A stretch of DNA of 64,000 nucleotides from Candidatus Methanophagales archaeon (GTDB lineage: Archaea; Halobacteriota; Syntropharchaeia; Alkanophagales; Methanospirareceae): the NCBI GenBank assembly GCA_003336485.1, contig QENH01000200.1, positions 7,510 through 71,509 on the forward strand. Direction: 5' to 3'. Shown in pieces: positions 11,487 through 64,000 of this stretch (position 1 is the first letter of the stretch; each line of letters begins with the position of its first letter). The notes beneath the pieces are model-generated. The model ran no database searches and was not told where the DNA came from. It saw nothing but the letters and a program-made list of their open reading frames with translations. The position numbers were made by a program, and so were the translations under genes.

Positions 11487-11534
11487 CTTGACGAATAGAA
11501 TAATGCAAAAAGATATGAGGTGAAAAAGAAGAAA
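11487..11534 (+). promoter_or_regulatory. Conserved 5' leader/promoter block shared by the three beta-helix paralogs. The other copies are at 14288-14322 and 16057-16107.
   Basis: The block ATGACGAATAGAATAA(A)TG(C/A)AAAAG recurs immediately upstream of each paralog start. Confidence 0.4.
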
Positions 11535-13940: not shown

Positions 13941-14322
13941 GCGGGGATATTTTGAACTGAATTCTGTCATCGCGATAACACGTCCCAAAGTTGGCTCTTC
14001 GTCCGTCCAGAACTCCCACATATCTTCATCACACGCCGAGTCATATATTCGCGGTGAATTCTCAGTATTGTCTGTCTCACCCTTATCCCGGTCATTGGTG
14101 AGCCAAGCAGTAGAGGAGAGCAACAATAATTTTTGAAGGGTGTATAGCGCGGTTTATTTCGATTATTCAGCCCTGCTTGTGGAGTCGAAAGAGGTTTCTA
14201 CTTTTGGAGTTATAAGGTCACAACTTGTTTATACGTTATCAACACACCAAAATAACACCTGTTCATTCTACCGAGGGTGTTTTATATCAACATGACGAAT
14301 AGAATAAATGAAAAGGAAAAAA

Positions 14323-15876: not shown

Positions 15877-16107
15877 TTGTACGCAATGTTTTGGCTGCAC
15901 AATGAGATTTTTTTATATATATATCAAGCCAAAATGTTCTAGCAAGCAGGTAGCGGCATTTTCCACTTGAAGAGTAAAAAACCCCTATCGTACCCATTTT
16001 ATGAGTCCCTAACACCTATGAATATGACATATTCACCCAACCTATGTCTTTTTATGCAGATATGATGAATAGAACAAATGCAAAAGTATGATGTGGAAAA
16101 GATAAAA

Positions 16108-19100
16108 ATGAAAACCCCAATAGCAATATTATTAATAGCCGCAATATTAACGCTAGCCATAGCTACAAGTGCACTCTCATTCTCGGCTTGCGCAACTACA
16201 AATAACCAAGAATCTTCGACATTGGCAACAGCCATGCCAGCACTAGCACAAGGTAGCAATGGTACCCCTAACGAAGACGACACCAGTAGTAGGGGATTTA
16301 CCCCGGATGCTGTGGCATGTGTCTTAACAAAGGACGTGGTGGCCTTTGATACCGTACAAATGGACGGTTTTGCATCTGCCCTTTCGCATGAAGATACAAC
16401 GCTTCCATACAACTCTTCGGGTAACAGACAAAAAGGCAGAGATATGCATACATCAGGGAAAATACCGAGTGAATCGGAACAGCCAGTAGAAGTATCAAAA
16501 CCACCATTGAAAGGATCTAAACAGCCAGTAAAAGTATCGAAACCGCCAATGAAAGAATCCAAACAACAATTAGTACATAATATAGACACAGGCGAGAACT
16601 TCACCACGATACAAGCTGCGATTGGTGATCCTGATACCGAGAATGGGCATACGATTACGGCTGATCCGGGAACGTATACGGAGAATGTAGTTGTTTACAA
16701 GTCTTTAACTATTCGCTCAACCACAGGAAATCCAGCAGATACGATTGTTCAGGCGGCGGATTCCTATGATCATGTCGTTAATGTGACTGCGGATTCTGTG
16801 ACTATAAGCGGGTTTACGGTGTCGGCGATAGATGGATATGCTGCAGGGATATATCTTGGAAGCGGAGTGGATCACTGCAATATCTCTGATAATAATGTAA
16901 CTGTCACTTATGGGTCGGGTATATATCTAGATTGTTCTAGCAACAACCTTATCTCTAACAATAATGCCTGTGGTAACGGGCCATCTGGCATCGAGCTGTC
17001 TCATTCCAACACCAATACTATCGTTAACAATACTGCAGACTATAATGACGAATATGGAATCCATCTGGATTATTCCAGCAACAACTTCATCTCTAACAAT
17101 AATGCCAGCGGGAATAACGGGCATGGCATCTATCTATCTCATTCCAACAACAACTCTCTTTCTAGCAATAATGTCTCGCAGTGTTGGTATGGCATCTATC
17201 TATCTCATTCCAACAACAACTCTCTTTCTAACAGTAATGTTTGGGGATTCGATGATGATGGCATCAGTCTATATTATTCTAGCAACAATTCGCTCTATAA
17301 CAATAACGTCTGGCTTAGCAGTGGTACGGGCATCCGTCTGTCATCTTCCAGCCACAACTCGCTCTCTAACAATAATGTCTTTAGTAACCTTGCTTTTGGC
17401 ATCGCGCTATATGGATCCAGCAACAACTCTCTTTCTACTAATACCCTAGAAAATAACGATTATGGCATCGAGCTGTCTCATTCCACCTGCAACTCGCTCT
17501 ATAACAATAATGTCTTGAAGAATGATGAGCATGGCATCCACCTCTCTTCTTCAGATAGCAACCTCATCTACAACAACATTTTCAACAACACGAACAACGC
17601 CTATGATGATGGAAGCAACATCTGGAACATCACAAAAGAATATACCCCAAACGGGAACATCATTGGCGGTCCTTACTTAGGGGGGAACAATTGGAGCGAT
17701 TACATGGGCATAGATAAAGATGGCGATGGACTTGGAGATACTTTGATGCCATACAACTCTTCGGGCGACATCCAAAACGGCGGCGATTTGCGGCCATTAG
17801 TGGAACCATCTGAACTACCAGTACATAATACAAACACAGGCGAGAACTTCGCCACGATACAAGCTGCGATTGATGATCCTGATACCGTGAATGGGCATAC
17901 GATTACGGCTGATCCGGGAACGTATATAGAGAATGTAGTTGTTTACAAGTCTTTAACTATGCACTCAACCTCAGGAAATCCATCAGATACGATTGTTCAG
18001 GCGGCGGATTCCTATGATCATGTCGTTAATGTGACTGCGGATTATGTGACTATACGCGGGTTTACGGTGTCGGGGGCATCATATGGATGGGATATAGCGG
18101 GAATATATCTTGGAAGCGGAGTGGATCATTGCACCATCTCTGATAATAATATAACTGACAATGGGTGGGGCATCTATCTGGATCATTCCAGCCACAACCA
18201 TCTCTATAACAATAATGTCCGGGGTAACGTCGGCGTTAATGGCGGCGGAATCAGGCTGTCATATTCCGGCGGCAACACTCTCTCTAACAATAACGTCTTG
18301 AACAACGAGGATGATGGCATCTGGCTATATCATTCCAACAACAACACTCTCTCTAACATTAATGCATCGCATAACTACTTTGGCATCATTCTGTCACATT
18401 GCAGCAACAACTCGCTCTTTAATATTGATGCTTCTAACGCATTCGCAAGCATATGGCTCTCTCAATCCAGCAACAACTCGCTCTTTAACATTAATGCCCG
18501 CCACAGCTCTGGTGACGCCGGCATTGTGCTGTTTCAATCCAGCAACAACTCGCTCTCTAACATTAATGCATCGGATGTCATGGGTTATCCTGGCATACAC
18601 CTCTCATCTTCCAGCAACAACTCGCTCTTTAACATTAATGCCTTTAACAACTTTTTAGGCATCGAGCTGTCAGATTCCAGCAACAACACTCTCTATAACA
18701 ATAATGTCTCGAATAACTATCTGTGGGGCATCGAGCTGTCACATTCCTCCTGCAACTCGCTCTATAACAATAATGTCTCGAACAATTATGATCTTGGCAT
18801 CCGCCTCTCTTCTTCAAACAATAACCGCATCTACAACAACATTTTCAACAACACGAACAACGCCTATGATGATGGAACAAACATCTGGAACATCACAAAA
18901 GAATATACGCCAAACGGGAACATCATTGGCGGTACTTACTTAGGGGGGAACAATTGGAGCGATTACATGGGCATAGATGAAGATGGCGATGGACTTGGAG
19001 ATACTTTGCTGCCATACAACTCTTCGGGCGACATCAAAAATGGCGGCGATTTGCGGCCTTTAGTGGAACCATCTGAACTACCAGTACATAATATAGACAC

Positions 19101-20616
19101 AGGCGAGAACTTCGCCACGATACAAGCTGCGATTGATGATCCTGATACCGTGAATTGGCATACGATTACGGCTGATCCGGGAACGTATACGGAGAATGTA
19201 GTTGTTTACAAGTCTTTAACTATTCGCTCGACCACAGGAAATCCATCAGATACGATTGTTCAGGCGGCGGATTCCTATGATCATGTCGTTAATGTGACTG
19301 CGGATTCTGTGACTATAAGCGGGTTTACGGTGTCGGGGGCACCAAGTTGGGATAGTGCAGGGATATATCTTGGAAGCGGAGTGGATCTTTGCACCATCTC
19401 TGATAATAATATAACTGACAATGGGAGGGGCATCTATCTGGATCATTCTAGCCACAACACTCTCTCTAACAATAATGCCCTGAAGAACTTTTGGTGTGGC
19501 ATCTATCTAGATTATTCCAGCAACAACAAGCTCCTCAACAATACTATCTTTCGAGGCGATTATGGCATCTATCTGGATTATTCCAGCAACAACTTCCTCT
19601 ATAACAATACTGTCGATTGGAGCGGTATGGAAGGCATAATTATGTCACATTGCAGCAACAATTCGCTCTTTAACAATAATGCCTGGGGTGTCAATGGTCC
19701 AGGCATCCATCTATCTTCTTCCAGCAACAACAACAATCTCTCAAACAATAATGCCTGGCATAACCTTGATGGTATCATTCTGTCACATTGCAGCAACAAC
19801 TCGCTCTTTAACAATAACGCCTGGTATAACGAGTATGGCATAGGTCTATATCATACCAACAACAACACTCTCTCAAACATTAATGCATCGCATAACGACT
19901 TTGGCATCTATCTGTATCATTGCAGCAGCAACTCGCTCTTTAACAATAACGCCTTTAACAACTATTTTGGCATCGAGCTGTCACATTCCAGCAACAACTC
20001 TATCTCAAACATTAATACATCGAACAACGATTTCTTTGGCATCTATCTATCTGATTCCGACAACAACTGTCTCTATAACAATATTGTCTTGAAGAATGAT
20101 GAGCATGGCATCCACCTCTCTTCTTCAGATAGCAACCTCATCTACAACAACATTTTCAACAACACGAACAACGCCTATGATGATGGAAGCAACATCTGGA
20201 ACAGCACAAACACCACGGGACCGAACATCATTGGTGGACCTTATATTGGCGGTAACTATTGGTCTGATTATGCAGGTATTGATTCGAATCATGATGGTTT
20301 TGGCGATACGCCTTATAATATACCGCCAGGCGGCATTAGCAAAGATTATTTACCGCTGGTTCCTGTTGAACCATCACCATGTTTCATAGCAACAGCAGCA
20401 TATGGTACGCCATTGCACGATGATATAGACGTTTTGAGAGATTTCCGAGACGAATATCTGATGATGAATCCAACAGGGAGAACATTTGTAAAAGTTTATT
20501 ATACATTGAGTCCACCGGTTGCGGATTTGATAAGGGGAAATGAAGGACTGGGAACTGCTGTACGGGAGGGTTTTGTTAAACCCTTAGTGTATGTTACGAG
20601 GATGTTTGTAGGCTGA
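16108..20616 (+). CDS. Giant secreted beta-helix repeat surface protein, paralog 3 (three tandem NosD-like modules)
   Basis: The same signal peptide is followed by three ~420-aa modules, each starting [22 protein letters not shown] and ending ...[13 protein letters not shown], then the C-terminal CFIATAAYG domain. The ORF-track start at 16078 is an upstream in-frame ATG. Confidence 0.8.
16576..20345 (+). repeat. Three tandem ~1.25 kb coding modules inside paralog 3. They start near 16576, 17824 and 19087, with a period of about 1248-1263 bp.
   Basis: Read directly from the sequence. Module ends are about 95% identical at nucleotide level (for example 17650-17822 vs 18900-19083), while interiors differ in PbH1 repeat content. 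Confidence 0.85.
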
Positions 20617-40513: not shown

Positions 40514-42811
40514 TTACTGTTCCAATCTAACAATTGGTATCCAAGTATTATAAACTATTATGCTTAGATATGTTTCGGGACCCGTATCAAATTCACTTTC
40601 TGTTGCAACAATAGTAACTTCCCTTGGCTTTGCGATATTTCCTTCTTCATCATTGGCATGTATTATAAAAGTATATCTACCCTCCTTCTTCGGAACAAAG
40701 CTCACCATATACCTATTTCCTACCTCTTCTTTTAACTCCAATGTGGTCAAGTTTATTTCATACATTGTATCATTGCTTATCTGGTCTATGGCAAAATCAG
40801 GTTCAATCAGGGTTACATATACACGCTCTACCTTCAAATCATCTACTACTACCGCCCATATCTCTATTTCTTCACCCACCATCACAGTCTGATTATCAAT
40901 TGAATCTAAGATAGTTGGAGGGAAATCAAGGGCTCCGAATTGGGATCCTATGTATGTTGACGATGACAAAGAGCCATCTCCAGGATATACTGGTGCGGGA
41001 TGCCCAATTCCATCACCATTGTCATCCAACAACGAAATTTGAGGCGATAATCCTACTTTATCGAGCGTATCAGAATATGCTTTTATCTCAGGCACATTTG
41101 ATGTTTCTTCAAAAGCTTCTTTTATGTTCTTCCCTTTTGCTATCGAGTTGAAGAAATATTTTGAGAATGTAGCGCCTGTTTGCTCTATCAACGAATTCGC
41201 TTTTGCGCCCGTTGATGTTACAATTATCCTGCCAGCCGTTGAAAGATTACAAATGAAACTGCCAGAACTACACGATTCTATCACCACCGTTATCTTATAG
41301 CATCCCGTATCAGCGGACAATTCATCCAGATTAGAATCCAACTCCGAAGAACTCAATGTCTCTCCAAGTCCTTTTAACAGAAGCATATCTTCTTTTCCAT
41401 GACCTATTATGTAAATGAACAATGGGACCTCGGTGCCTACTTTCCCCTCTGCCCATGTGTTTATCGCATACGAAATATTTTCCTTTGATGTTTGCATGTC
41501 TACTCTCTCAAAGTTCATGGGACTGAGATAAAATAGCCTTTCATCAGTGAAGCCGCGCTTCAAGAGTGTGTCATAAGTCATGTTTGCTGTCAGGTCAATG
41601 TAATTCTGCGATAGCCATTCGTCGTTTCTGCCAACGATTATAATTGCATATCCTACTTCAATACGGTATTGTTTTACGGTAAAACACATAGTTTCGCTCT
41701 TTATCGCTTTCCCTCCGATAACACAAGAGGCATTTACGTTCCATTCTCCGACCTCATTTGGCGGAAAAGTAATGGCGTAGGAGCCGCTTAATGTGGTCAT
41801 TACAGGCTGCTCTGCAATTTCACCTGTGGGCGATTTGAATATCATGGTTACTATTGTGCTGGATGCAGGAACTATTTCTCCAGAAACCGTTACGCTTTCT
41901 GATCTGTTCAACATAGCAGGACTTACTGAGATTGTGATATGTGTTGGTGGGGTTGGAGTGGGAGTTGGATATTCGTAAGTTGTGGGGGATGCAACAGGTG
42001 TTGGCGTTTGCTGAGCTGAGGGTGAAGGCGTTAATGTTTGAGAAGGTGAAGGTTCTGGAGTGGGAACCGCTCCTCTTGCCTCCTTCTTATCCACTATAAA
42101 ACCAAAAGCAATACCGCTACCATCAGTTTCGAGCTTAATCTTTAACGTGTCCCCAGTGAACCATTCCGTCCACATATCCGCTTCACTTAAAGGGCCCCAA
42201 CTGTATCCATATGTTGCAAGTTCATTCTTGTCTATATCGAGTATCCGCACATAATCATCTTCCAAGAGTTCTATCTTGGTAAAATGAATCCTCATTTCAG
42301 CTACTCCCGGTTCCGAGATGGTCCAGATGTTTTCATAGTTGTTTGCATACGGATGATAGGTTTCTGCTAAATATGAGGATGTTGGTGCTGATTCTGTCCG
42401 CCTTTCCACTTCATCCACTATAAAACCAAAAGCAATACCGCTACCATCAGTTTCGAGCTTAATCTTTAACGTGTCCCCAGTGAACCATTCCGTCCACATA
42501 TCCGCTTCACTTAAAGGGCCCCAACTGTATCCATATGTTGCAAGTTCATTCTTGTCTATATCGAGTATCCGCACATAATCATCTTCCAAGAGTTCTATCT
42601 TGGTAAAATGAATCCTCATTTCAGCTACTCCCGGTTCCGAGATGGTCCAGATGTTTTCATAGTTGTTTGCATACGGATGATAGGATTCTGCTAAATACGA
42701 AGCTGAAACAGTTTGGATTCCGAGTGGGAAGATTCCGATTGACAAGACACATATCAAAAGGATACTACCTAAAAATATGCCGAGCTTCATGATTTTGCCC
42801 TTTCTCTTCAT
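40514..42811 (-). CDS. Secreted legumain/C13-like cysteine peptidase with two tandem CUB-like domains
   Basis: - Signal peptide.
- Two ~130-aa near-identical CUB-like domains ([18 protein letters not shown]...YVRILD...).
- Peptidase core with His in IIGHG and Cys in VIESCSSG, the C13/caspase-like dyad arrangement. Confidence 0.55.
42091..42694 (-). repeat. Near-perfect tandem duplication of the CUB-like domain coding segment (2 copies of ~324 bp)
   Basis: Read directly from the sequence: 42091-42370 and 42415-42694 are nearly identical. Confidence 0.85.
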
Positions 42812-54006: not shown

Positions 54007-54300
54007 ATGGAGAACAAGGATAAAGAGCGGGATAAAAAAAGGGCAGAATATGAGGAAGGCTTAAAAAAGACGTTGATACCACTCGCATTTGGTATTCTTG
54101 CAGGTGCCTTATCCTTTATTTTGATAAAAGATCCCGTATCAACGGATGGTTTGATTATTGCAATCATAATGATATTTGTGCAGAAGTTTGTCTATCAGTT
54201 CTTGCATATACCCATGGAAGGTGCAAAAGACTGGATTTATCTCGCTTTTATGACTCTTTTCTGCTGGTTCGTCGCTTATACATTAATGTTGAATCTGTAG
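54007..54300 (+). CDS. Small membrane protein
   Basis: 97 aa with a charged N-terminus followed by two or three TM helices. Confidence 0.4.
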   Translation: MENKDKERDKKRAEYEEGLKKTLIPLAFGILAGALSFILIKDPVSTDGLIIAIIMIFVQKFVYQFLHIPMEGAKDWIYLAFMTLFCWFVAYTLMLNL

Positions 54301-54771
54301 ATCGGAATTCAGAATAATGTGGGTAGCTGCGATAGCGAGGGCATCAGTGACATCGTCGGGCTTTGGCATTTCCGCTAATTTGAGCTTCTCGACTACACTG
54401 GTGGCGACTTCGCTCTTCGTTGCCCTGCCATATCCGGTTATAATGCTCTTTACCTCGGATGTGTTATAGTCATATGCCGGTATGTCTGAGATCGCAGCAG
54501 TTAAGAGACAAACCCCTCGTGCCTGTCCAACACTTAACGCTGTCTTCACGTTTGTATTGAAGAAAATCATCTCTATTGCCATAACATCTGGCGTAACGTC
54601 CTTTATCACGGCGAGCAGATCATAATAGATCTTCTTTAATCGCTCTCCATTCGATTGCGCGGGTGTTGTCTTTACATAACCAAAATCAATTGGTTTTAAT
54701 CGTCCGTTGTTTAACTCGACAACACCCCATCCAGTGCGAGCAGTTCCTGGGTCTATTCCTATCACACGCAT
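54283..54771 (-). CDS. ruvC: Crossover junction endodeoxyribonuclease RuvC (bacterial-type Holliday junction resolvase)
   Basis: RVIGIDPGTARTGWGVV, AIEMIFF, LSVGQARGV, TGYGRATKSEV and DDVTDALAIAATH are colinear with E. coli RuvC motifs, including the catalytic D/E/D/D positions. Confidence 0.7.
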   Translation of the reverse strand: MRVIGIDPGTARTGWGVVELNNGRLKPIDFGYVKTTPAQSNGERLKKIYYDLLAVIKDVTPDVMAIEMIFFNTNVKTALSVGQARGVCLLTAAISDIPAYDYNTSEVKSIITGYGRATKSEVATSVVEKLKLAEMPKPDDVTDALAIAATHIILNSDLQIQH

Positions 54772-54803: not shown

Positions 54804-54878
54804 CCAAAGAAACAATATACCTTAGGTAAGATAACCTTCTTCCAAAGAAACAATATACCTTAGGTAAGATAACCTTTC
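54804..54878. repeat. Two tandem copies of a 38-nt unit (CCAAAGAAACAATATACCTTAGGTAAGATAACCTTTCT)
   Basis: Read directly from the sequence. It lies immediately 3' of motif copy C, in the ruvC/csl4 divergent region. Confidence 0.8.
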
Positions 54879-54973
54879 TTTCAAAAAGTTTTAAAACATT
54901 TAGCAAAGAAATATTAATTATACTTAGTATAAAGTAAATTGTTAAGGGGGAGTGAAAAGAAGGAAAGGAAGTA

Positions 54974-55537
54974 ATGGAGAAAGAAGAAGGTATTGTAGTT
55001 CCTGGGGATTTCCTGGGTACTTCTGAGGAATTTACGCCTGGGATGGGCGTGTATGATGAAACTGGAAATATTTATGCCTCTGTGACCGGAGAGATTAGCA
55101 TAAGTGATAAGAGGGTTATAGATGTCCTGCCAAAAGTAGGGACACCGCCAGTGCCAGAAGAGGGAGATGTGGTTATAGGCAGGATAGAAGATTTGAGAGA
55201 TGCTGTTGCTGTCGTGAATATAGCGCGAGTGAAAGGTAAAGATGATCGAGATGTTGCATCATCCACGCAGGGTATTATCCATATATCGAATATAAAGAGC
55301 GGGTATGTGTCAGAATTGCAGCGTGAGTTTGGTTATCTGGATCTGGTGAAGGCGAAAGTGCTGGACGCAAAGGCATTAAGACTTAGCACGGAGGGAAATG
55401 ATTTGGGCGTGATAAAAGCGATATGCGGGAAATGCAAAGGCGATTTGAGGAAGAAAGGGAATACGTTGACGTGTGATACGTGCAAGAGGGTAGAAGAAAG
55501 GAAGCTATCTGACGATTATGGTAAGGGATTAGTGTAG
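54974..55537 (+). CDS. csl4: Exosome complex RNA-binding subunit Csl4
   Basis: An S1 domain plus a C-terminal zinc ribbon (CGKCKGDL...CDTCKR), 187 aa. Confidence 0.8.
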   Translation: MEKEEGIVVPGDFLGTSEEFTPGMGVYDETGNIYASVTGEISISDKRVIDVLPKVGTPPVPEEGDVVIGRIEDLRDAVAVVNIARVKGKDDRDVASSTQGIIHISNIKSGYVSELQREFGYLDLVKAKVLDAKALRLSTEGNDLGVIKAICGKCKGDLRKKGNTLTCDTCKRVEERKLSDDYGKGLV

Positions 55538-55568
55538 CTAGCATACTAAACTAAGTGGTGATGTAAGC

Positions 55569-55859
55569 ATGGAGAATGGCGGGATAAAGATAAAGGTAGT
55601 GGAAAGGGCGGAGAATGAGCTGCGGCTGGAGATAGAAGGGGAGGGCAATACGCTTTTAGCACCGCTGACTTCCAAGCTCCTGGAGAATGAAAATGTAGAC
55701 CTAGCAACCAATAGCATGACACATTCGCTGCTGGGCAATTCCATATTGTATGTGAAGATGAAGGAGGGTGATGCTTTAGAAGCCATAAAATCTGCACTTA
55801 CTTCTCTTGCTTCCGACTTTGAAGAGTTTGGGCGGAAATACCGGGCGGCAATAGTCTAG
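55569..55859 (+). CDS. rpoL: DNA-directed RNA polymerase subunit L (Rpo11)
   Basis: 96 aa. IKVVERAENELRLEIEGEGNTLLAPL matches the Rpo11 N-terminus. Confidence 0.8.
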   Translation: MENGGIKIKVVERAENELRLEIEGEGNTLLAPLTSKLLENENVDLATNSMTHSLLGNSILYVKMKEGDALEAIKSALTSLASDFEEFGRKYRAAIV

Positions 55860-55915
55860 TGGTAGGACATAGGCTTCCCAAGCCTGTAACCCGGGTTCGA
55901 GCCCCGGTTGCCGCA
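55845..55915 (+). tRNA. tRNA-Gly (anticodon CCC)
   Basis: Manually folded:
- acceptor stem GCGGCAA/TTGCCGC;
- D-arm GTCT/GGAC;
- anticodon stem TAGGC/GCCTG with loop TTCCCAA;
- T-arm CCGGG-TTCGAGC-CCCGG;
- discriminator A.
No CCA is encoded, as is common in archaea. It overlaps the rpoL stop by 15 nt. Confidence 0.85.
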
Positions 55916-56018
55916 TAAAGCCGCCGCTCGTGTGGGGACGGTTTTCGGCAGACAACCATTAGGATATTAGTTTAGAACCGCTATCAAAGTAAACTAAATA
56001 CTGTGTTGGGCTGAGGAT

Positions 56019-57101
56019 ATGGATCAGATAAAGAAATATGAATTCAGGAAGGTATTGGAAGAACTGAGGGAAAAGACCGGGCGAGGAACCGAGCTCGTTT
56101 CCGTTTACATCCCGCAGGATAAACAGATTTCAGATGTTACTTCTCAGCTCCGTTCGGAGCACGGGCAGGCGATGAACATAAAGAGTAAATCGACACGTAC
56201 TAATGTTCAAAGCTCTCTGGAGTCAATATTAGCGAAGCTGCGGTACGTGCGTGTGGATGAGAACGGGTTGGTTATTTTCTGCGGTGCCGTTGCTAAGGGA
56301 GGGGACAGGACAGATATAGAAACTTTCATTGTGGAGCCGCCAGCGAAGATATATTCCTATATCTACCATTGTGATTCGAGCTTCTTCCTCGAGCCGCTGG
56401 AAGATCTAGTGGACGAGCACGAAAAATACGGCTTGATTGTGCTTGACAAAAGAGAGGCAACGATCGGTCTATTGAATGGTAAGGTGATAGAGTCGCTGAA
56501 GCACATAACTTCCGCTGTTCCGGGAAAGATGAGAAAAGGTGGGCAATCAGCACCGAGATTCCAGCGGCTGCGGTTAATAGCAATCGGGGATTTTTATAAG
56601 CGAATAGGCGAACATACAACACAAGCATTGCTTCATATGGACCTGAAAGGCATTTTGATTGGTGGACCCAGTCCGACGAAGGAGGAATTTTTAAAGGGGT
56701 CTTTCCTGCATTATGAGTTACAAGATAAGATACTGGGCATTTTTGATGTTGCATATACGGATGAATCGGGACTCTATGAACTCGTAGACAAAGCGGATGA
56801 TGTATTAGAGGGGTTGGATTTGGTGCGTGAGCGGAAGCTGATGACAAGGCTCATGAAACTATTGGTTAATAAGGATACTATGGTGGCATACGGCGAACAA
56901 GAAGTGCGGCGGAAATTGGAACAGGGTGCGGTGGATACGCTTTTGGTATCGGAAGAGCTAGATAAGGCGCTTGTGCACGATTTGGTGGAGATGGCCGAGG
57001 TGATAGGGTCAGACGTGGAACTAATTTCAATGGAGTTTGAGGAAGGTGCGCAGTTAAAGCGAGCTTTTGGTGGCGTTGCTGCTATATTGCGCTATGGCTA
57101 G
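56019..57101 (+). CDS. prf1: Peptide chain release factor aRF1
   Basis: The N-terminus YEFRKVLEELREKTGRGTELVSVYIP, the NIKS-containing segment QAMNIKSKSTR and the GGQ motif (KMRKGGQSAPRFQRLR) are all present. Confidence 0.85.
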   Translation: MDQIKKYEFRKVLEELREKTGRGTELVSVYIPQDKQISDVTSQLRSEHGQAMNIKSKSTRTNVQSSLESILAKLRYVRVDENGLVIFCGAVAKGGDRTDIETFIVEPPAKIYSYIYHCDSSFFLEPLEDLVDEHEKYGLIVLDKREATIGLLNGKVIESLKHITSAVPGKMRKGGQSAPRFQRLRLIAIGDFYKRIGEHTTQALLHMDLKGILIGGPSPTKEEFLKGSFLHYELQDKILGIFDVAYTDESGLYELVDKADDVLEGLDLVRERKLMTRLMKLLVNKDTMVAYGEQEVRRKLEQGAVDTLLVSEELDKALVHDLVEMAEVIGSDVELISMEFEEGAQLKRAFGGVAAILRYG

Positions 57102-57356
57102 AAGGTAAATTCACGCCATGGGCCTGTGTCCGCCCCACCGATTAAAAGCACACACAGCAAAAGGCTTATATATCCCTTGTACACTTCCAATTTTTAACGG
57201 TCTGCTTTGTGGAAGGCGATAAAAACAAAGATGGACCTTACTTAAAGCGATACGAACGAAGCGTACTTTAGCTTGACCTGAAACTGCTCTGAACCATTTT
57301 GTGATGAAATCCTCAATTTTCTTATTGTATTGTCTAGATACTCAATATACAATAAA

Positions 57357-57527
57357 GAACCCACCGCCGCGGATGGCCCGGTAGGCGCCATCTCCTTTCC
57401 ATACGCTGCCGTCAGTAGGTGCGCCGTCCGTCATAGCAAACCAGACATTGTTGTCAGGCAGGACTTCGTATCCGCGTTTTAGCTCGAGAATTGATGTACT
57501 GTAAGCTTTGAGGTTTCATGTAATTTG
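57357..57527 (-). pseudogene. Short gene fragment (C-terminal ~57 codons, no start) in a decayed intergenic region
   Basis: Own translation: NLKAYSTSILELKRGYEVLPDNNVWFAMTDGAPTDGSVWKGDGAYRAIRGGGFFIVY*. It is bounded upstream by an in-frame TGA and has no ATG. It weakly resembles the C-terminus of FGE-sulfatase/SUMF1-like domains (NVWEW...R..RGGS). Confidence 0.3.
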
Positions 57528-57785
57528 AGGGGGTTTTGAGGATACCAAAGCTTTGATCCGTTGTGTTGCAAGGCTATAGCAGAGAGTAGCGGTTCCAAAT
57601 AATGTGCTTCGCATTTTGTTCGTTCTATCGCTTTATGACAACCTTTTTGGTGGTGAGTATCAAAACAAAAAAGCGAATAGCTTTTAATATCCTAGGTCAT
57701 ACCTGTGATAAACGTGTAGTTTATGTCATCGGCGGTCTTGCTTAAAGGCAGGCCTTGTACTTAAGTACGCTGTATGGTGACTTTA

Positions 57786-58499
57786 TCAACCCCAACGTTC
57801 ATGGCTCAACATTGACCGATTCAACTCTTCTTTATATAAACGCCATTGCGGCATAAATTTATCCAGATATGCTATAAAACGATCGCTGTGGTTGCGCACT
57901 AAAAGGTGTATCATCTCGTGTACGATAATGTATTCAAGACAGGTTTCCTGCTTTTTCGCGAGTTCTAGATTTAACCAAATTCGACGACTTGCAAGAGTGC
58001 AAGTGCCCCATTTGGTTTTCATTTTCTTAATACCCCAGTCATCAACTTCCACTCCGATTATCTTTTGCCATTTATCCAATAGTGCAGGTACTTGATCTTT
58101 AAGTTGCTTCCGATACCATTTGGTAAGCACTTTCTCGCGCTGCTCGGTCGTGCTCCCAACCCGAACGTAAAGGTCAATATAGGTTTTATTGCGTATTTCT
58201 ACTTTGGGGCTAGCATTGCAATAAATAACATTTAATATATAGCGCCTGCCGTTGTAATAATGACTTTCTCCGGACACAAATTTACGTGCTGATTGACGTT
58301 CTTGAGCTTCAAATTTCAATTGCTGTTTTCTTATCCACGCCATTTTCGTTATAGCAAAAAGGCTAACAGCATCATCATCTAGTTTCAGTGGTGTAGCAAT
58401 GCGCACCCGGCCGTTGGGCGGATATACACCAAGATGCAGATTCTTTATATCCTTTCTTACCACATCTATTGATAGGTCACCTACAGTAATCCGGTGCAT
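57786..58499 (-). CDS. DUF45/YgjP-like M48-family zinc metallohydrolase (accessory gene often found with type I R-M systems)
   Basis: HEMIHLLVRNH (HExxH), 237 aa, positioned directly downstream of hsdR. Confidence 0.75.
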   Translation of the reverse strand: MHRITVGDLSIDVVRKDIKNLHLGVYPPNGRVRIATPLKLDDDAVSLFAITKMAWIRKQQLKFEAQERQSARKFVSGESHYYNGRRYILNVIYCNASPKVEIRNKTYIDLYVRVGSTTEQREKVLTKWYRKQLKDQVPALLDKWQKIIGVEVDDWGIKKMKTKWGTCTLASRRIWLNLELAKKQETCLEYIIVHEMIHLLVRNHSDRFIAYLDKFMPQWRLYKEELNRSMLSHERWG

Positions 58500-58500
58500 T

Positions 58501-61500
58501 TTAATAGTCCCTCTGATTTTTGACTAACCCAAAAATAAGGTCTACTTCATCATCATCATCTATGTGTTTTCGTATCGCATATTTTACTTCACGCTCCTTT
58601 ATCAAATTGCCACGCCAGCCGTCTTTTTTCGTGTGACTGATTTCCGCATCCAGAGCAATCGTGAGTTCTTCATCATGGCTCAAATTATCGTATAGGGCGC
58701 GTTTGGCATTAGAATCCAACCGTTTAGGATATATAGCAGAATCAGCAGGTTTTTTTACTTTTTTACTTAATTCGACTATTTTGGCCAAATATTCTTTATA
58801 ACTTTTGGCTTCTTCTTTTCGTTCATTTATCAATTCATCCAGAAGCGTTGACATATTCTCGTAATACTTCGGATTGGTAGGCATTTGATCGATTATCAGC
58901 CTGCGCATATTGTTTTCTATTGTTTCCGCCACGGCTTCTTTGTTCCTTGTTATGCCTTTCGGTAATGCGTTTACCGCATCCGCGCCTCGTTCTACGATCA
59001 AATCGATCAGCGTCATGTCATCAAAAGCAGAAATCGTTTTGCTTTCTTCTGCACCTATGTACGTGTCTATCAAATGACGCATAGCAGGCTCGTATGCCTT
59101 CAAGTCAATATAATCACCACTTGCCAGTTTTATTTCGGCTCTTACAGCTTCATAATACGCAACATCTCTTTTTATCTGCTCAATTTCTTCTGGTCTATAA
59201 CCGGCTTTCACCATTTCGTTTGCTATGTCGGCATAGGCTCTGATCAATGCTGCTGTATGCTTATATAATGCGATACGCTTTTGTTCCGTTTCTTTTAATT
59301 CGTTCTTAATTTCCGGGTTGCCACAGAAGTAACGAGTATAAGCCAGAGTATCTTTTGGTGCTGCTACCGGTTCGCACAACGCTTTTATTGCTTCCAGTGC
59401 ATTATCTAATCGTTCCTTGCCCAGTGCCAATCTGTCAGTCAATAAACCTGCTACATCTTCTTGTTCGTACGCATCGAATGCTCCTGAGGTATAATCGTCT
59501 ATTGCCTTTTCAAGGCTTTTGAATAGGTCTTTGTAATCGATGATATAGCCATATTCTTTGTCATCGCCATCTAAACGGTTTACACGGCAGATGGCTTGAA
59601 ACAGCCCATGATCCTGCATACTCTTATCAATGTAGAGATAGGTAGCGGAAGGGGCGTCAAAGCCCGCAAGCAGTTTATCCACAACAATGAGCAATTTCAT
59701 CTGGGCAGGTTCTTCTACAAACTTCTTTTTTACTTCTTCTTCAAACGTCTTTGGATCTTTACCATCCAACATCTTCTGATAAACGTCGTATTTCTTCAGT
59801 TTGTCAGTAGGCGAGTCTTCGCCGGTGCTTTCGCCTTTTTGGTCTCCCATTGAGGGTATGTAAGAGGTGACAATGGCACATTTTTTCAAGCCTGCATTTT
59901 GAAACAGTTCATAATATCTACATGCCTGATAAATACTACCTGAGACCAGCATGGCATTGCCCGCACCGTTTTGCAGCCGGTCTTTTGTTTCTATGTCCAG
60001 TAAAATATCGGCAACAATTTTTTCTAATCGTGATTGTGAGCTGAGGACACGTTTCATGGTGCCCCATTTCTTCTTCAGTTCGATTTTGGCGTAGTCGGTT
60101 AATCCTCTTGTCTTTGCCTCGAACCACTGGTCTATCTTTGCCGGTGAGGTGATATTCTGGTCAACGTTCCGTGCCTCGTATCGCAGATCAAGCACTACCT
60201 CATCTTTTACTGCTTCATCGTATTTGTAGGTGTGGATATATTTGCCAAATACTTCTATGCTTTTCTTCTTATCTTTCTTTAGCAGGGGCGTGCCGGTAAA
60301 ACCGATGAGCAATGCATCAGGCAAAATGAATTTCATGGCTTCGTGCAGCTTACCCGACTGTGTGCGGTGGCACTCATCCACAAATACGTAGATGTCGCCT
60401 TTTGCTCGAAAGTCTCTGGGCAGATTTTTCCGGAGGTCTTCTATATAGCCGTCATAATCAGCCTCTTCTTTATTTGCGAATTTATGGATTAGCGAGCAGA
60501 GCAGCCAGGGCGTTGTCGCATTCAATTTATCAATCAAATCTATTCCGCTTCTGGTGCGGGCAATCTTTTCACTGAGACCCAAAAATACTTTCTCTATCTG
60601 CTTATCCAGATCATCACGGTCGGTGATGATGAGTACCCGGGCATCATTGATATTCTCGCGTATCCATTTGGCAAGCCAGACCATGATCAGGCTTTTGCCG
60701 CTACCCTGGGAGTGCCAGATGATACCGCCTTCGCGTTTGCCTATGCTTGCCTGAGATGTCTTGACTGCAAAGTACTGATTGTGCCGGCAGATCTTTTTGG
60801 TGCCGCGATCGTAGACGATAAAATCGTGTAAGAGCTCCAGAAACCGCTCTTTATTGCATAGCTGTGTAATGTGCCGATCAAGCGGGTTTTCTATGTCGCT
60901 TTCTTCTTTCCATGAGAGCCAATATTTTTCCGGTGTTTCGATAACGCCGTAGCGGATGCCTTCGGTATCGTTGCCTGCCATTATCAATTGAATAGTAGCA
61001 AAAAACGGGCGGATAAAAGTTTGCTTTTGATTGTCCAGATTCTGGCGAATACCTTCGGAAACGGACACGGTGCTGCGTTTTAGTTCCAATACGCCTAAGG
61101 CAATGCCATTGACATATAGCACCACGTCCGGGCGTTTATCGTTTTCGCCTTTTACTGTTACCTCTTCTGCTATGGCGAACTCATTTTCAAGTGGATTTTC
61201 CCAATCTATCAGCTTAACGGTCTGGGTGTTTTCACCTACCTCTTCCTTTACACTTACGCCATAACGCAACAGGGAATATACATCTTTGTTGAGGTCGTGC
61301 AAACTCTTGCTCTGGTTGGTTGCGGCCCTGGTAAGCTCGTAAATGGCTTTGACGATAAGGATCTGGCTATAACCTCTTTTAAGCAGGTACTGGTGTAAAA
61401 TCTTCTTTTCTATATTGCCATTGTTCTCGCGGTCTTCCCAGTTGCCGAGATATTCATAGCCTAAATGTGTTTGGAACAGGTCTACCACTCGGTCCTGTGT

Positions 61501-61530
61501 GATGCGTTCTATTTGTCCTATTGGTGTCAT
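58501..61530 (-). CDS. hsdR: Type I restriction enzyme R subunit HsdR
   Basis: 1009 aa with an N-terminal nuclease-domain region, the SF2 helicase motif I (HSQGSGKS) and DEAH-like motif II (VFVDECHRTQ), plus C-terminal helical domains. Confidence 0.9.
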   Translation of the reverse strand: MTPIGQIERITQDRVVDLFQTHLGYEYLGNWEDRENNGNIEKKILHQYLLKRGYSQILIVKAIYELTRAATNQSKSLHDLNKDVYSLLRYGVSVKEEVGENTQTVKLIDWENPLENEFAIAEEVTVKGENDKRPDVVLYVNGIALGVLELKRSTVSVSEGIRQNLDNQKQTFIRPFFATIQLIMAGNDTEGIRYGVIETPEKYWLSWKEESDIENPLDRHITQLCNKERFLELLHDFIVYDRGTKKICRHNQYFAVKTSQASIGKREGGIIWHSQGSGKSLIMVWLAKWIRENINDARVLIITDRDDLDKQIEKVFLGLSEKIARTRSGIDLIDKLNATTPWLLCSLIHKFANKEEADYDGYIEDLRKNLPRDFRAKGDIYVFVDECHRTQSGKLHEAMKFILPDALLIGFTGTPLLKKDKKKSIEVFGKYIHTYKYDEAVKDEVVLDLRYEARNVDQNITSPAKIDQWFEAKTRGLTDYAKIELKKKWGTMKRVLSSQSRLEKIVADILLDIETKDRLQNGAGNAMLVSGSIYQACRYYELFQNAGLKKCAIVTSYIPSMGDQKGESTGEDSPTDKLKKYDVYQKMLDGKDPKTFEEEVKKKFVEEPAQMKLLIVVDKLLAGFDAPSATYLYIDKSMQDHGLFQAICRVNRLDGDDKEYGYIIDYKDLFKSLEKAIDDYTSGAFDAYEQEDVAGLLTDRLALGKERLDNALEAIKALCEPVAAPKDTLAYTRYFCGNPEIKNELKETEQKRIALYKHTAALIRAYADIANEMVKAGYRPEEIEQIKRDVAYYEAVRAEIKLASGDYIDLKAYEPAMRHLIDTYIGAEESKTISAFDDMTLIDLIVERGADAVNALPKGITRNKEAVAETIENNMRRLIIDQMPTNPKYYENMSTLLDELINERKEEAKSYKEYLAKIVELSKKVKKPADSAIYPKRLDSNAKRALYDNLSHDEELTIALDAEISHTKKDGWRGNLIKEREVKYAIRKHIDDDDEVDLIFGLVKNQRDY

Positions 61531-61533
61531 ATC

Positions 61534-62150
61534 TTAGCCCCCTATAACTTTCCAATGCCCGCCTTTATCTGGGCCAACTCTTATAAGTTTACCCTCTTGT
61601 TGCAAGTTTTGGATGTTTCTTTCGATTGAACGTGTGGTTACGCCAATTATTTCTGCAAGTTCCGGTATCGTTATCCAGTCATTTGATTTAATTGCCTCCA
61701 CTATTTTCACCGACGTTTTCACCGACGTTTCTTCCGGAACAATATAGTTACTTAGCTTAAACTCAAGATAAAAACCGGAGAAATCATACTTGAATTCAGG
61801 TACGGGCAAACCAGCTCTCTTGCATTCACTGTTAATTTTCTGAATGCCTCGCCCCCCATGCTTCAATTAAGCCTGCACGGAAAAATGCATTCGCAATATC
61901 GGGATTATACGGTTTGGAGGGGTGTTTTTGTTTTAGCGTTTCAATTGTCCAGTTTTCAGGTAATTGACCATCGTTCCATAAAACTATTTTATCATCATAA
62001 ACGCTTATTTGGATGGGGACGCCGTTGCTATAATCTTTGTGTACAACGGCATTTAACAGGGCTTCACGCAAAGCCGGTCTGGGAAACGGGTATTTTTCAA
62101 TTCTGGTCAGATCGTCATAACTTATATTCGCCCTCATGTATTTGGTAAGC
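61534..62150 (-). pseudogene. Transcriptional-regulator-like ATPase gene (HATPase_c_4 core plus C-terminal wHTH; AlbA_2/Schlafen-like family), 5'-truncated and frameshifted
   Basis: Two overlapping ORFs (61832-62230 and 61534-61866) carry the HATPase_c_4-like core (LLNAVVHKDYSNGVPIQISVYDDKIVLWNDG) and the wHTH tail. The frameshift is near the C-run at ~61855-61861. Homology stops at ~62150, where sequence identical to the beta-helix repeat begins. Confidence 0.6.
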
Positions 62151-64000
62151 AGCAACACGATACATAGCAATACCGCTTCAAGCAACGACTTCGGCATCGA
62201 TCTGTATTCTTCAAGCAACAATAACCGCATCTATAACAACTACTTCAACAACTTCCATAACAATGCTCGAGATGACGGGAGCAACATCTGGGACATCTCG
62301 CCGACCTTAGGAGGGAACATAATCGGCGGTTCCTGGCTGGCTGGTAACTACTGGAGCGATTATGCCGGAATAGATGCAAATGGCGATGGGCTTGGAGATA
62401 CATTACTACCGTATAACGCCAATGGTGATATTTTAATAGGTGGCGATATGCATCCATTGGTTCCAGCGGGTATTGCACCCCTTTTAGCACTAAAAAAATC
62501 AGACGACCTCGATCCCATCCCGCCCGGCGGCACATTGAACTATTCTATTATCGTGAATAACGTTGGATATATAACAACAACGAATGTCACAGTGACAGAG
62601 ACATACGATATGAACGTTGCCTACGACTCGGCTATGCCTGCGCCTTCATCAGGAAACGACATGTGGATATTCCCGGTGCTCAATGCAAACGAGAGCAAAT
62701 GGATCAATATTTCCGTTATTGTCAACCCGTCCATTCCGATAGGAACGGTCCTACATAATACCGTTAATGTGTCCAGTGCAGAAGGAGTAACTGATTCTGA
62801 TACAGAGGCTACAACTGTCTTCTTCGGTGAACAAAACTGCACCTGTGGCGACATATGTGTAATTACAACCGGCTGGTGGCGAGATGGCGGCGCGTTTCAT
62901 CCAACTGATACGCCGATACAAGATGCAATAGAGAACGCAGGTACGGGTGATACTATTTGCGTTAAGGATGGCACGTACAATGAGAACGTGAATGTGGACA
63001 AGCGATTAACGCTAAAATCGGATAACTGTGCTGCTTCGACCACGGTTAATGCTTTATATCCAAATGAGCATGTATTTGAGGTGACTGCGGATTATGTAAA
63101 CATATCGGGATTCACTGTTAAAGGAGCAACAGGTAAAGGAAAGGCAGGAATATATCTCAGCAGTAGCATAGATCACTGCAACATTTATGATAACAACGCT
63201 TCGGATAATAACTATGGCATCTATATGATGGAGTCGAGCTACAACAGGATCACAAGCAATACCGTCTCGAACAACGACAGGTATGGCATTTACCTGCGGC
63301 GTGAGTCGAGCAACTACAACACAATCACAAACAACATTGCTTTGAACAACGACTACGGCATCCGCCTGTCTCATTCCAGCAACAACACGATACATAGCAA
63401 TACCGCTTCAAGCAACGACTTCGGCATCGATCTGTATTCTTCAAGCAACAATAACCGCATCTATAACAACTACTTCAACAACTTCCATAACAATGCTCGA
63501 GATGACGGGAGCAACATCTGGGACATCTCGCCGACCTTAGGAGGGAACATAATCGGCGGTTCCTGGCTGGCTGGTAACTACTGGAGCGATTATGCCGGAA
63601 TAGATGCAAATGGCGATGGGCTTGGAGATACATTACTACCGTATAACGCCAATGGTGATATTTTAATAGGTGGCGATATGCATCCATTGGTTCCAGCGGG
63701 TATTGCACCCCTTTTAGCACTAAAAAAATCAGACGACCTCGATCCCATCCCGCCCGGCGGCACATTGAACTATTCTATTATCGTGAATAACGTTGGATAT
63801 ATAACAACAACGAATGTCACAGTGACAGAGACATACGATATGAACGTTGCCTACGACTCGACTATTCCTGCGCCTTCCGTAGGGAATGACACGTGGATAT
63901 TCCCTGCACTCAATGCAAACGAGACCAGATGGATTAATATTTCCGTTTCTGTCAATCCGTCCACTCCGATAGGAACTGTTCTACATAATATCGTTAAGGT
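62136..64000 (+). CDS. Beta-helix/NosD-like plus DUF11-like repeat protein. It is open-ended with no stop in the window, no signal peptide at the first ATG, and is probably a fragment.
   Basis: Own translation of the plus strand from ATG 62136 (preceded by an in-frame TAA at 62118): [40 protein letters not shown]...[37 protein letters not shown]...DUF11-like LALKKSDDLDPIPPGGTLNYSIIVNNVG...CTCGDICVITTGWW...PbH1 repeats, then the same unit again. The ORF track missed it because the ORF does not terminate inside the window. The minus-strand ORFs listed here are antisense artefacts. Confidence 0.6.
   Translation, partial: MYLVSSNTIHSNTASSNDFGIDLYSSSNNNRIYNNYFNNFHNNARDDGSNIWDISPTLGGNIIGGSWLAGNYWSDYAGIDANGDGLGDTLLPYNANGDILIGGDMHPLVPAGIAPLLALKKSDDLDPIPPGGTLNYSIIVNNVGYITTTNVTVTETYDMNVAYDSAMPAPSSGNDMWIFPVLNANESKWINISVIVNPSIPIGTVLHNTVNVSSAEGVTDSDTEATTVFFGEQNCTCGDICVITTGWWRDGGAFHPTDTPIQDAIENAGTGDTICVKDGTYNENVNVDKRLTLKSDNCAASTTVNALYPNEHVFEVTADYVNISGFTVKGATGKGKAGIYLSSSIDHCNIYDNNASDNNYGIYMMESSYNRITSNTVSNNDRYGIYLRRESSNYNTITNNIALNNDYGIRLSHSSNNTIHSNTASSNDFGIDLYSSSNNNRIYNNYFNNFHNNARDDGSNIWDISPTLGGNIIGGSWLAGNYWSDYAGIDANGDGLGDTLLPYNANGDILIGGDMHPLVPAGIAPLLALKKSDDLDPIPPGGTLNYSIIVNNVGYITTTNVTVTETYDMNVAYDSTIPAPSVGNDTWIFPALNANETRWINISVSVNPSTPIGTVLHNIVK
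62150..62630 (+). repeat. Direct repeat, copy 1, of a ~1.23 kb unit. Copy 2 is at 63380-63860.
   Basis: Blocks compared by eye (62161-62340 vs 63391-63570 and 62581-62630 vs 63811-63860) are identical at a 1230-bp offset. Downstream the copies diverge to roughly 85%. Confidence 0.8.
63380..63860 (+). repeat. Direct repeat, copy 2 (see 62150-62630)
   Basis: Same comparison as for copy 1. Confidence 0.8.

Follow-up and report, generated by a model that had tools for sequence, protein, structure and literature searches.

Near the end of the 64-kb stretch of DNA that was analysed (hereafter the window), a gene for a repetitive surface protein begins exactly where a regulator gene on the opposite strand breaks off, and a long perfect repeat begins at the same place. 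The question raised by this locus is whether the join was made by recombination in the cell or by the assembly. An earlier note, made from the sequence, had named both possibilities. The features on which the answer depends are listed in the table.

Table. Features of the right-hand part of the window (positions are those of the window)
Feature	Positions	Strand	Content	Basis
YgjP-like metallopeptidase gene	57786..58499	-	left-most gene of a horizontally mobile hsdR unit	Pfam YgjP-like, 2e-60
hsdR, orphan type I restriction R subunit	58501..61530	-	intact, 1009 aa	Pfam HSDR_N, SWI2_SNF2, T1R_D3-like
AlbA_2/HATPase_c_4/winged-HTH regulator remnant (pseudogene)	61534..62155	-	two overlapping ORFs	Pfam HATPase_c_4 and HTH_11
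5'-truncated modular cell-surface protein ORF	62136..64000	+	beta-helix/NosD tail, DUF11, CTCGDICV linker, beta-helix; continues past the window end	
Recombination junction	62148..62155	.		three-way alignment of window, regulator orthologues L013/L007 and repeat copy 2
Identity block R, copy 1	62153..62630	+	last two beta-helix coils, NosD-type tail (IIGGSWLAGNYWSDY...GDGLGDT), first half of DUF11	
Single-copy segment	62631..63382	+	second half of DUF11, CTCGDICVITTGWW linker, beta-helix N-terminal cap, ~6 PbH1 coils	translation
Identity block R, copy 2	63383..63860	+	preceded by its own beta-helix coils	
Diverged continuation of module 2	63861..64000	+	84% identical to 62631-62770	

The open reading frame (ORF) is preceded by an in-frame stop codon (TAA, 62118-62120), ATG 62136 is its earliest start codon, and its end is cut off at 64000; of the source contig (79,743 bp), some 15.7 kb fall outside the window. 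Codons 1-4 (MYLV) derive from the antisense strand of the regulator, and the ATG is accidental, being the antisense of the regulator's TKYM codons. No hydrophobic stretch was present in the N-terminus (MYLVSSNTIHSNTASSNDFG) and no hydrophobic signal sequence in residues 1-30 (MYLVSSNTIHSNTASSNDFGIDLYSSSNNN), which are located in the final coils of a beta-helix. About the last 73 of the ~223 residues of the NosD domain are kept in the first module, and the beta-helix that opens the ORF is reduced to two coils. Translation and Pfam matches thus bear out the earlier description of a frame running from ATG 62136 to the window end, lacking a signal peptide and beginning inside a beta-helix. A hidden upstream start with a signal peptide, to be reached through a corrected frameshift, was excluded, since to the left of 62148 the DNA codes throughout for the regulator, on the opposite strand, and is collinear with the orthologues in L013 and L007. 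The ORF lacks both the leader of a complete secreted ANME-1 surface protein and the upstream region of its family. It is a headless remnant, most likely a pseudogene, and without a signal peptide its product is predicted to be unable to reach the surface.

Pfam matches in the ORF were NosD (6e-53), Beta_helix, DUF11 (two stretches) and DUF7507. Scores of 114.1 bits for TIGR03804 (cut-off 19.45), 179.9 bits for PF05048 NosD (cut-off 23.6; residues 266-488) and 74.7 bits for PF13229 Beta_helix (cut-off 25.9) place it among the beta-helix/CASH/NosD-domain proteins, and scores of 54.2 bits for PF01345 DUF11 (cut-off 24.6) and 28.1 bits for TIGR01451 (cut-off 24) assign it to the DUF11 proteins as well. 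Its nearest homologues are ANME-1/Methanophagales proteins annotated as 'cell surface glycoprotein / CASH / NosD domain', at no more than 70-75% identity; a protein-based search of metagenome contigs returned distant relatives only. Three other genes of the family lie in the window, each with a signal peptide or transmembrane start and a CFI-box-CTERM (NF041770) end. The ORF had been counted as a fourth beta-helix/DUF11 gene beside them. The relationship holds but the shared architecture does not: the three genes, at 11.5-20.6 kb, match NosD/Beta_helix without any DUF11 match, so that the ORF is a differently built paralogue.

The two copies of block R are identical over 478 nt at an offset of 1230 nt (410 codons). 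To the left of copy 1, a further 4 nt (62148-62151) match as well, with a single mismatch at 62152; beyond R, the other 140 comparable nt are 84.3% identical (22 differences), and 11 of the 19 differing codons in this continuation are non-synonymous. The earlier observation of a ~410-aa unit present twice, with identical blocks followed by ~85% identity, was therefore reproduced. By our own arithmetic, 478 straight matches against an 84% background have a probability of ~0.843^478, roughly 1e-36, and the block is accordingly not due to chance. An origin of the diverged block in a diversity-generating retroelement was rejected, the mismatches not being specific to adenine: all four bases occur among the 22 differences, C/T transitions being commonest, and A stands in copy 1 at 4 of them and in copy 2 at 2. 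A recent exchange with the beta-helix array at 11-21 kb was likewise rejected; array and ORF reach at best 67-75% identity, over stretches shorter than 400 nt, and no exact run that they have in common exceeds 20 nt, which leaves unsupported the proposal that a beta-helix module had been moved in from there by homologous exchange.

On the other side of the junction lies what is left of a type I restriction-modification island. Nucleotide homology to the islands of Methanoperedens and Methanosarcinales begins at ~57777-57792, and hsdR is 91-92% identical to that of other Methanophagales and 82-85% identical to that of Methanoperedens/Methanosarcinales. With hsdM and hsdS queries from L006 and L013, tblastn found neither gene in the 64-kb window, and without them the system is not functional as a type I enzyme. 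Intact orthologues of the regulator (449 aa and 443 aa) adjoin hsdR in two other archaea, L013 and L007. The remnant lacks approximately the first 234 codons, a part that was not found elsewhere in the 64 kb, and its reading frame is shifted by +1 within a C run at ~61851-61856 (window CGCCCCCCATG, L007 CGCCCCCAGG), as is expected of a dead gene. Among syntenic Methanophagales, hsdM-ASCH-hsdS-hsdR is intact in L006, and in L025 hsdR is cut at residue ~327 and fused to other genes; together with the loss of hsdM and hsdS from the window this indicates that the island decays by different deletions in each lineage. Insertion of the island into a surface-protein gene was ruled out, as the left flank, which holds eRF1, RNA polymerase subunit L and Csl4, is collinear with that of relatives and contains no beta-helix 5' half.

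Homology to the intact regulator extends to 62155 and the repeat starts at 62153, so that the two parents overlap by 3 nt perfectly (CAA, 62153-62155) or by 7 of the 8 nt at 62148-62155 (AGCA[G/A]CAA; AGCAGCAA versus AGCAACAA). The identity block hence does begin where the regulator is truncated, as had been noted before. Run SRR6058406, as assembled by Logan with k=31, served as an independent check. Its contig SRR6058406_325 equals window positions 54847-62182 without a mismatch (100%), crosses the junction unbranched and comes to its end 30 nt, exactly k-1, inside the repeat; both of its ends fall on 30-mers that are present twice (54809/54847 and 62153/63383), as k=31 predicts. The junction is therefore present in the reads as the dominant continuation, and the unbranched passage from 62155 to 62182 indicates that no intact-regulator continuation, which would read ...GGTAAGCAGCAAATC..., exists at comparable abundance. 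Of the two origins left standing by the earlier note, the unbranched contig and the microhomology at the breakpoint favour genuine recombination over an assembler join. The Logan assembly may share the library of the source contig, so this comparison tests the assembler and not the DNA preparation. GC content showed no discontinuity at the junction, and an exact search of species-representative genomes and JGI metagenome contigs gave no hit to the junction 42-mer.

The perfect repeat was compared with neighbouring modules of a relative, GoMg3.2 (L077), which are ~99% identical for ~360 nt and then ~90% identical, the break lying at the same TETYD position. Within a genome, R copies are 100% (window) and 97.9% (GoMg3.2) identical, and between genomes 82-86%; for the block after R the values are 86% (window) and 93% (GoMg3.2) within, and 77-84% between. 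Identity that is higher within than between genomes fits concerted evolution and not purifying selection. Judged from these identities, the R-block match is within-gene module homogenisation, a trait of the family, and the homogenising process is probably gene conversion.

Taken together, the locus was probably shaped by a genuine microhomology-mediated deletion (or inversion) that joined the interiors of two genes, the R block representing homogenised modules. One illegitimate rearrangement at 62148-62155 in an ANME-1 (Methanophagales) genome would suffice, and its most economical form would be a deletion between two divergently transcribed genes; we infer a deletion rather than an inversion. 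On the minus strand the island regulator would have lost its first ~234 codons along with hsdS and hsdM, and on the plus strand a multi-module secreted surface-protein gene would have been stripped of promoter, signal peptide and initial modules. The ~1.2 kb modules would have been kept alike by gene conversion or unequal crossing-over. Either the breakpoint would have fallen within a homogenised block or a conversion tract would have reached the end of the available homology, and in both cases the identity would start at the junction. The number and order of modules after the first R block are those of the assembly, in which copies may have been collapsed.

Repeat-induced misassembly after a real junction, with the wrong module threaded, modules collapsed or strain variants merged, is unlikely, though not negligible. 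The 478-nt exact repeat exceeds a typical short-read length, the Logan contig (k=31) ends at precisely this repeat, and homologous genes in three other ANME-1 assemblies begin at contig base 1-2 inside a module, the evidence including a 'partial' annotation of P0004; such contig-edge starts and the Logan break indicate that members of this family routinely defeat short-read assembly. In that event the perfect identity and the two-module layout would partly be artefacts. However, with the nodes that were seen (regulator side, R, 752-nt middle and diverged continuation) the window order is the sole path that uses each of them once, and the near-perfect blocks of GoMg3.2 keep scattered mismatches (97.9-99%) that pure collapse would erase. 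The truncation of both genes would stand even so.

A template switch at AGCA[G/A]CAA during library preparation (whole-genome amplification or PCR), inherited by both assemblers, is very improbable. Such switches typically leave a few bases of microhomology, as found here, and many public 'Methanophagales archaeon' ANME-1 genomes are amplified single-aggregate genomes (PMC9012536). Yet beside a chimera the true continuation of the regulator should also be seen, whereas the Logan contig is unbranched at 62155; the frameshift in the remnant is independent of the junction, the islands of relatives really do decay by deletions, and hsdM, hsdS and the regulator N-terminus occur nowhere else in the 64 kb. 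It is no less doubtful that the promoterless, leaderless module array might serve, by analogy with pilS/vls, as a silent donor archive from which DUF11/beta-helix modules would be gene-converted into expressed surface genes. The mosaic similarity would suit such a role, with perfect blocks abutting blocks of 84-86% and with so many of the differing codons changing the amino acid, as would the absence of a start region of the ORF's own; an archive of this kind would amount to cassette-based surface variation in uncultured methane-oxidising archaea. But within the window no expressed partner with recent tracts was found, the paralogues there being at most 75% identical, and the R block matches only its own next module. 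Moreover, the junction ties the array to a regulator that is dead and belongs to a decaying island, and this suggests accident and not design.

With a microhomology-mediated deletion as the preferred origin, the feature is real but ordinary, and its value is mainly practical. A perfect repeat that sets in exactly where a gene is cut short has the appearance of a chimeric join but can be the scar of a real deletion, and the k-1 end positions of contigs in an independent de Bruijn assembly can be used to test such joins without reads. For annotation, it is advisable to enter both ORF 62136 and the fragments of the regulator as pseudogenes and to label hsdR an orphan. The locus adds one more example of horizontally acquired type I restriction islands in ANME-1 decaying fast and differently per lineage, and one more of concerted evolution among the modules of ANME-1 beta-helix/DUF11 surface proteins. 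This concerted evolution accounts for the breaks that such genes cause in metagenome assemblies and for the poor reliability of their copy numbers.

Several known systems resemble parts of this locus. With the modular surface proteins of ANME-1/Methanophagales (P0001 of GoMg3.2; P0066), the ORF shares 60-75% amino-acid identity, the module order (CTCGDICVxTTGWW linker, PbH1 right-handed beta-helix, NosD-type tail ending ...GDGLGDT, DUF11) and near-identical blocks within the gene; complete members have a signal peptide or transmembrane start and many have a CFI-box-CTERM end, whereas the ORF is leaderless and starts inside a beta-helix, its C-terminus lying beyond the window. The likeness to NosD (the periplasmic copper-binding maturation protein of nitrous oxide reductase, PF05048/TIGR04247) consists of the parallel beta-helix signature and the C-terminal tail motif. 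Compared with genuine NosD, however, the ORF scores 143.8 bits against an NCBIfam cut-off of 300 for TIGR04247, has no adjacent nos genes, and carries the domain in repeated form, combined with DUF11; what the two have in common is fold and not function. In the type I restriction-modification island of Methanoperedens (L013) an AlbA_2/HATPase_c_4/HTH regulator lies between hsdS and hsdR, and the window's hsdR, downstream YgjP-like gene and regulator 3' half are collinear with it at 77-82% nucleotide identity, but hsdM, hsdS and the N-terminal half of the regulator are missing and what is left of the regulator is frameshifted. Finally, prokaryotic microhomology (illegitimate) deletion scars likewise join unrelated sequences at a 3-8 nt overlap, truncate both flanking genes and remove the genes between them. 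The present scar differs from ordinary ones in that one endpoint sits in a reiterated gene, and for this reason it meets the start of a long exact repeat and resembles an assembly join.

Self-comparison of the window at a 1230-nt offset gave an exact direct repeat of 478 nt (the R block, Table); the four bases 62148-62151 match as well at this offset and 62152 is mismatched. Past 62630 the copies are 84.3% identical (22 differences over 140 nt up to the window end), which confirmed the earlier note's description of identical blocks followed by divergence to ~85%. At 84.3% background identity, an unbroken stretch of 478 matches would by our own arithmetic have a probability of roughly 1e-36, and the R block is therefore a real discontinuity in divergence. 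The repeated unit of the ORF starting at ATG 62136 comprises 410 codons in four parts: the CTCGDICVITTGWW linker, a beta-helix cap with PbH1 coils, a NosD-type tail and a DUF11 domain. Matches were obtained to NosD (6e-53), Beta_helix, DUF11 (two stretches) and DUF7507 in Pfam and to parallel beta-helix and DUF11-type repeats in NCBIfam; judged by these domains, the predicted protein is a member of both the beta-helix/CASH/NosD-domain and the DUF11 families. Identification as the NosD maturation protein was ruled out (143.8 bits vs a cut-off of 300). Each of the best protein matches belongs to ANME-1/Methanophagales; their identity reaches 70-75%, and they carry the names 'cell surface glycoprotein', 'CASH domain-containing' and 'NosD domain-containing'.

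Coordinates of the features in the window (unless a contig is given) and the aligned junction sequences
Feature	Position	Strand	Remark
Array of three tandem signal-peptide beta-helix genes	11520-20616		blocks 85-94% identical among themselves
First paralogue	11520-13940		ends in CFI-box-CTERM (NCBIfam)
Middle paralogue	14308-15876		522 aa; ends directly after NosD-type tail, without CFI-box-CTERM
Third paralogue	16078-20616		ends in CFI-box-CTERM (NCBIfam)
Internally repeated ORF	40514-42811	minus	765 aa; weak Peptidase_C13, CUB, filamin-type matches
Repeat within this ORF	42089-42705		two 293-nt copies, 99% identical, 324 nt apart
RuvC-like gene	54283-54771	minus	one side of 38-nt tandem duplication
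38-nt tandem duplication	54809-54884		CCAAAGAAACAATATACCTTAGGTAAGATAACCTT, twice; intergenic; marks one end of Logan contig
Csl4-like exosome gene	54974-55537	plus	other side of 38-nt tandem duplication
(TSVK)n, 12-nt tandem repeat in regulator	61700-61730	minus	2 copies in window, 3 in L007, 5 in L013
Stop codon TAA	62118-62120	plus	precedes the frame
Beta-helix/DUF11 ORF	from 62136	plus	first start codon ATG; open up to window end
R block, copy 1	62153-62630	plus	identical to copy 2
R block, copy 2	63383-63860	plus	identical to copy 1
Junction, orthologues		plus	...TATTTGGTAAGCAGCAAATCAAG...
Junction, window	62148-62155	plus	...TATTTGGTAAGCAGCAACACGATACATAGC...
Junction, repeat copy 2		plus	...CATTCCAGCAACAACACGATACATAGC...
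ANME-1 homologue, other public assembly	L077 1-3211		starts at first contig bases
ANME-1 homologue, other public assembly	L082 1-2521		starts at first contig bases

Complete relatives and the three window paralogues open with a positively charged, hydrophobic leader. No hydrophobic leader was found within the first 30 residues of ORF 62136, which are the final two coils of a beta-helix, so that the earlier reading of a gene without signal peptide beginning in mid beta-helix stands, and the ORF fails as a complete secreted family member. Its initial 'MYLV' is the antisense of the regulator codons for TKYM. An upstream start reached through a corrected frameshift is impossible because the DNA upstream encodes the regulator, in antisense to the ORF. 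The middle paralogue may be truncated as well. The ORF at 40514-42811, with PGF-CTERM proteins on either side, is a further internally repeated surface-protein gene.

Searching species-representative genomes with the window hsdR protein (NCBI RCV62835.1) returned 75 loci, among which an intact regulator lies immediately upstream of hsdR in L013 (Methanoperedens, 449 aa) and L007 (a bin labelled Bacteroidales, 443 aa). In the window, two overlapping minus-strand ORFs (61534 to about 62155) match HATPase_c_4 and winged helix-turn-helix; about the first 234 codons are missing, and a C run near 61851-61856 is longer by one C, which divides the remainder into two frames. Both orthologue alignments end at 62155 and repeat identity runs from 62153, in agreement with the claim that the identity block starts where the regulator is truncated. 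By three-way comparison the two parents share CAA (62153-62155) without a mismatch and 7/8 bases over 62148-62155.

An exact-protein look-up of hsdR retrieved a Logan contig (L001, run SRR6058406, 7336 nt), whose reverse complement equals window 54847-62182 with 0 mismatches; the original assembler had no part in this check, although the library may have been shared. The contig's right end falls after exactly 30 nt of the repeat (30-mer 62153-62182 recurs at 63383) and its left end starts a 30-mer found twice (54809 and 54847); at both ends this is how a graph with k=31 should break, at k-1. It follows that the reads contain 31-mers spanning the junction of regulator and beta-helix, which an 8-nt imperfect overlap cannot produce. 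L001 is unbranched at 62155; an intact regulator continuation is thus not present at comparable abundance. Of the two origins proposed earlier, genuine recombination is supported by these 31-mers and the unbranched path, which contradict an assembler join. The junction 42-mer was absent from two public contig collections. Amplification from single aggregates underlies many public ANME-1 genomes (PMC9012536), and genomes obtained in this way are liable to template-switch chimeras; such an origin of the junction is nevertheless very unlikely, since the true path would normally coexist with the chimera, the regulator remnant has an additional frameshift, and hsdM/hsdS are absent. The suggested exchange by homology with the array at 11-21 kb finds no support: identity is <=75% over <400 nt, and the longest exact shared run is 20 nt.

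One chromosomal site was found in three states in three Methanophagales (window 57786-62155, L006 1-8346 and L025 1-8368, compared together with L013 5302-13030). Across the eRF1/YgjP/hsdR region, L006 and L025 align collinearly with the window (~91-92% nucleotide identity). In L006 homology stops at the hsdR start codon, and hsdS, an ASCH gene and hsdM lie upstream, hence a complete system; in L025 hsdR breaks off near residue 327, where unrelated genes adjoin it; the window has an intact but orphan hsdR beside the regulator remnant, and neither hsdM nor hsdS was found anywhere in the 64 kb. The hsdR unit is highly mobile: identities are 82-85% in Methanoperedens/Methanosarcinales and, among bins with a Bacteroidales label, 83-86%, values suggestive of either a recent horizontal spread or mis-binning. 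The picture is one of a horizontally acquired restriction island decaying through different deletions per lineage, with 62148-62155 as the scar in this lineage.

In the homologue of ANME-1 GoMg3.2 (L077), copies at an offset of 1359 nt are about 99% identical for ~360 nt and about 90% for ~540 nt and then unalignable, the drop falling at the same TETYD position as in the window gene. The R block is 100% identical within the window, 97.9% within GoMg3.2 and 82-86% between genomes; for the following block the values are 86%, 93% and 77-84%. Modules are thus more alike within than across genomes, the R block most strongly, which points to concerted evolution by gene conversion or unequal exchange and not to unusually strong purifying selection. 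Differences after the R block involve all bases, which excludes a retroelement-type, adenine-directed process, and 11/19 differing codons are non-synonymous. For identity to begin at the scar, the breakpoint could lie anywhere inside a homogenised block; alternatively, a conversion tract could have extended as far as homology was available. Neither case calls for a special mechanism.

The ANME-1 beta-helix/DUF11 surface-gene family defeats assemblers: the genes of GoMg3.2 and P0003 begin at contig base 1-2, inside a module, so that the public figures for copy number and length are probably systematic underestimates. The 478-nt exact repeat likewise exceeds short-read length, and module number and the module after the first R block may thus differ from the assembly; the window order is, however, the sole path using each segment once, counting only segments seen.

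As the regulator and the surface-protein gene are oriented away from each other, a single deletion, taking both 5' ends and everything in between, would account for the arrangement. The data fit an inversion at these breakpoints equally well; it would imply a reciprocal junction elsewhere. That the headless array serves as a silent cassette is highly improbable; ORF 62136, which adjoins a pseudogenised regulator and an orphan hsdR, is probably a pseudogene. The ORF and its junction are a real but ordinary feature, most suitably classified as a paralogue, truncated at its 5' end, of the known modular surface proteins of ANME-1: compared with the complete relatives, the modules are present and the family's beginning is missing.
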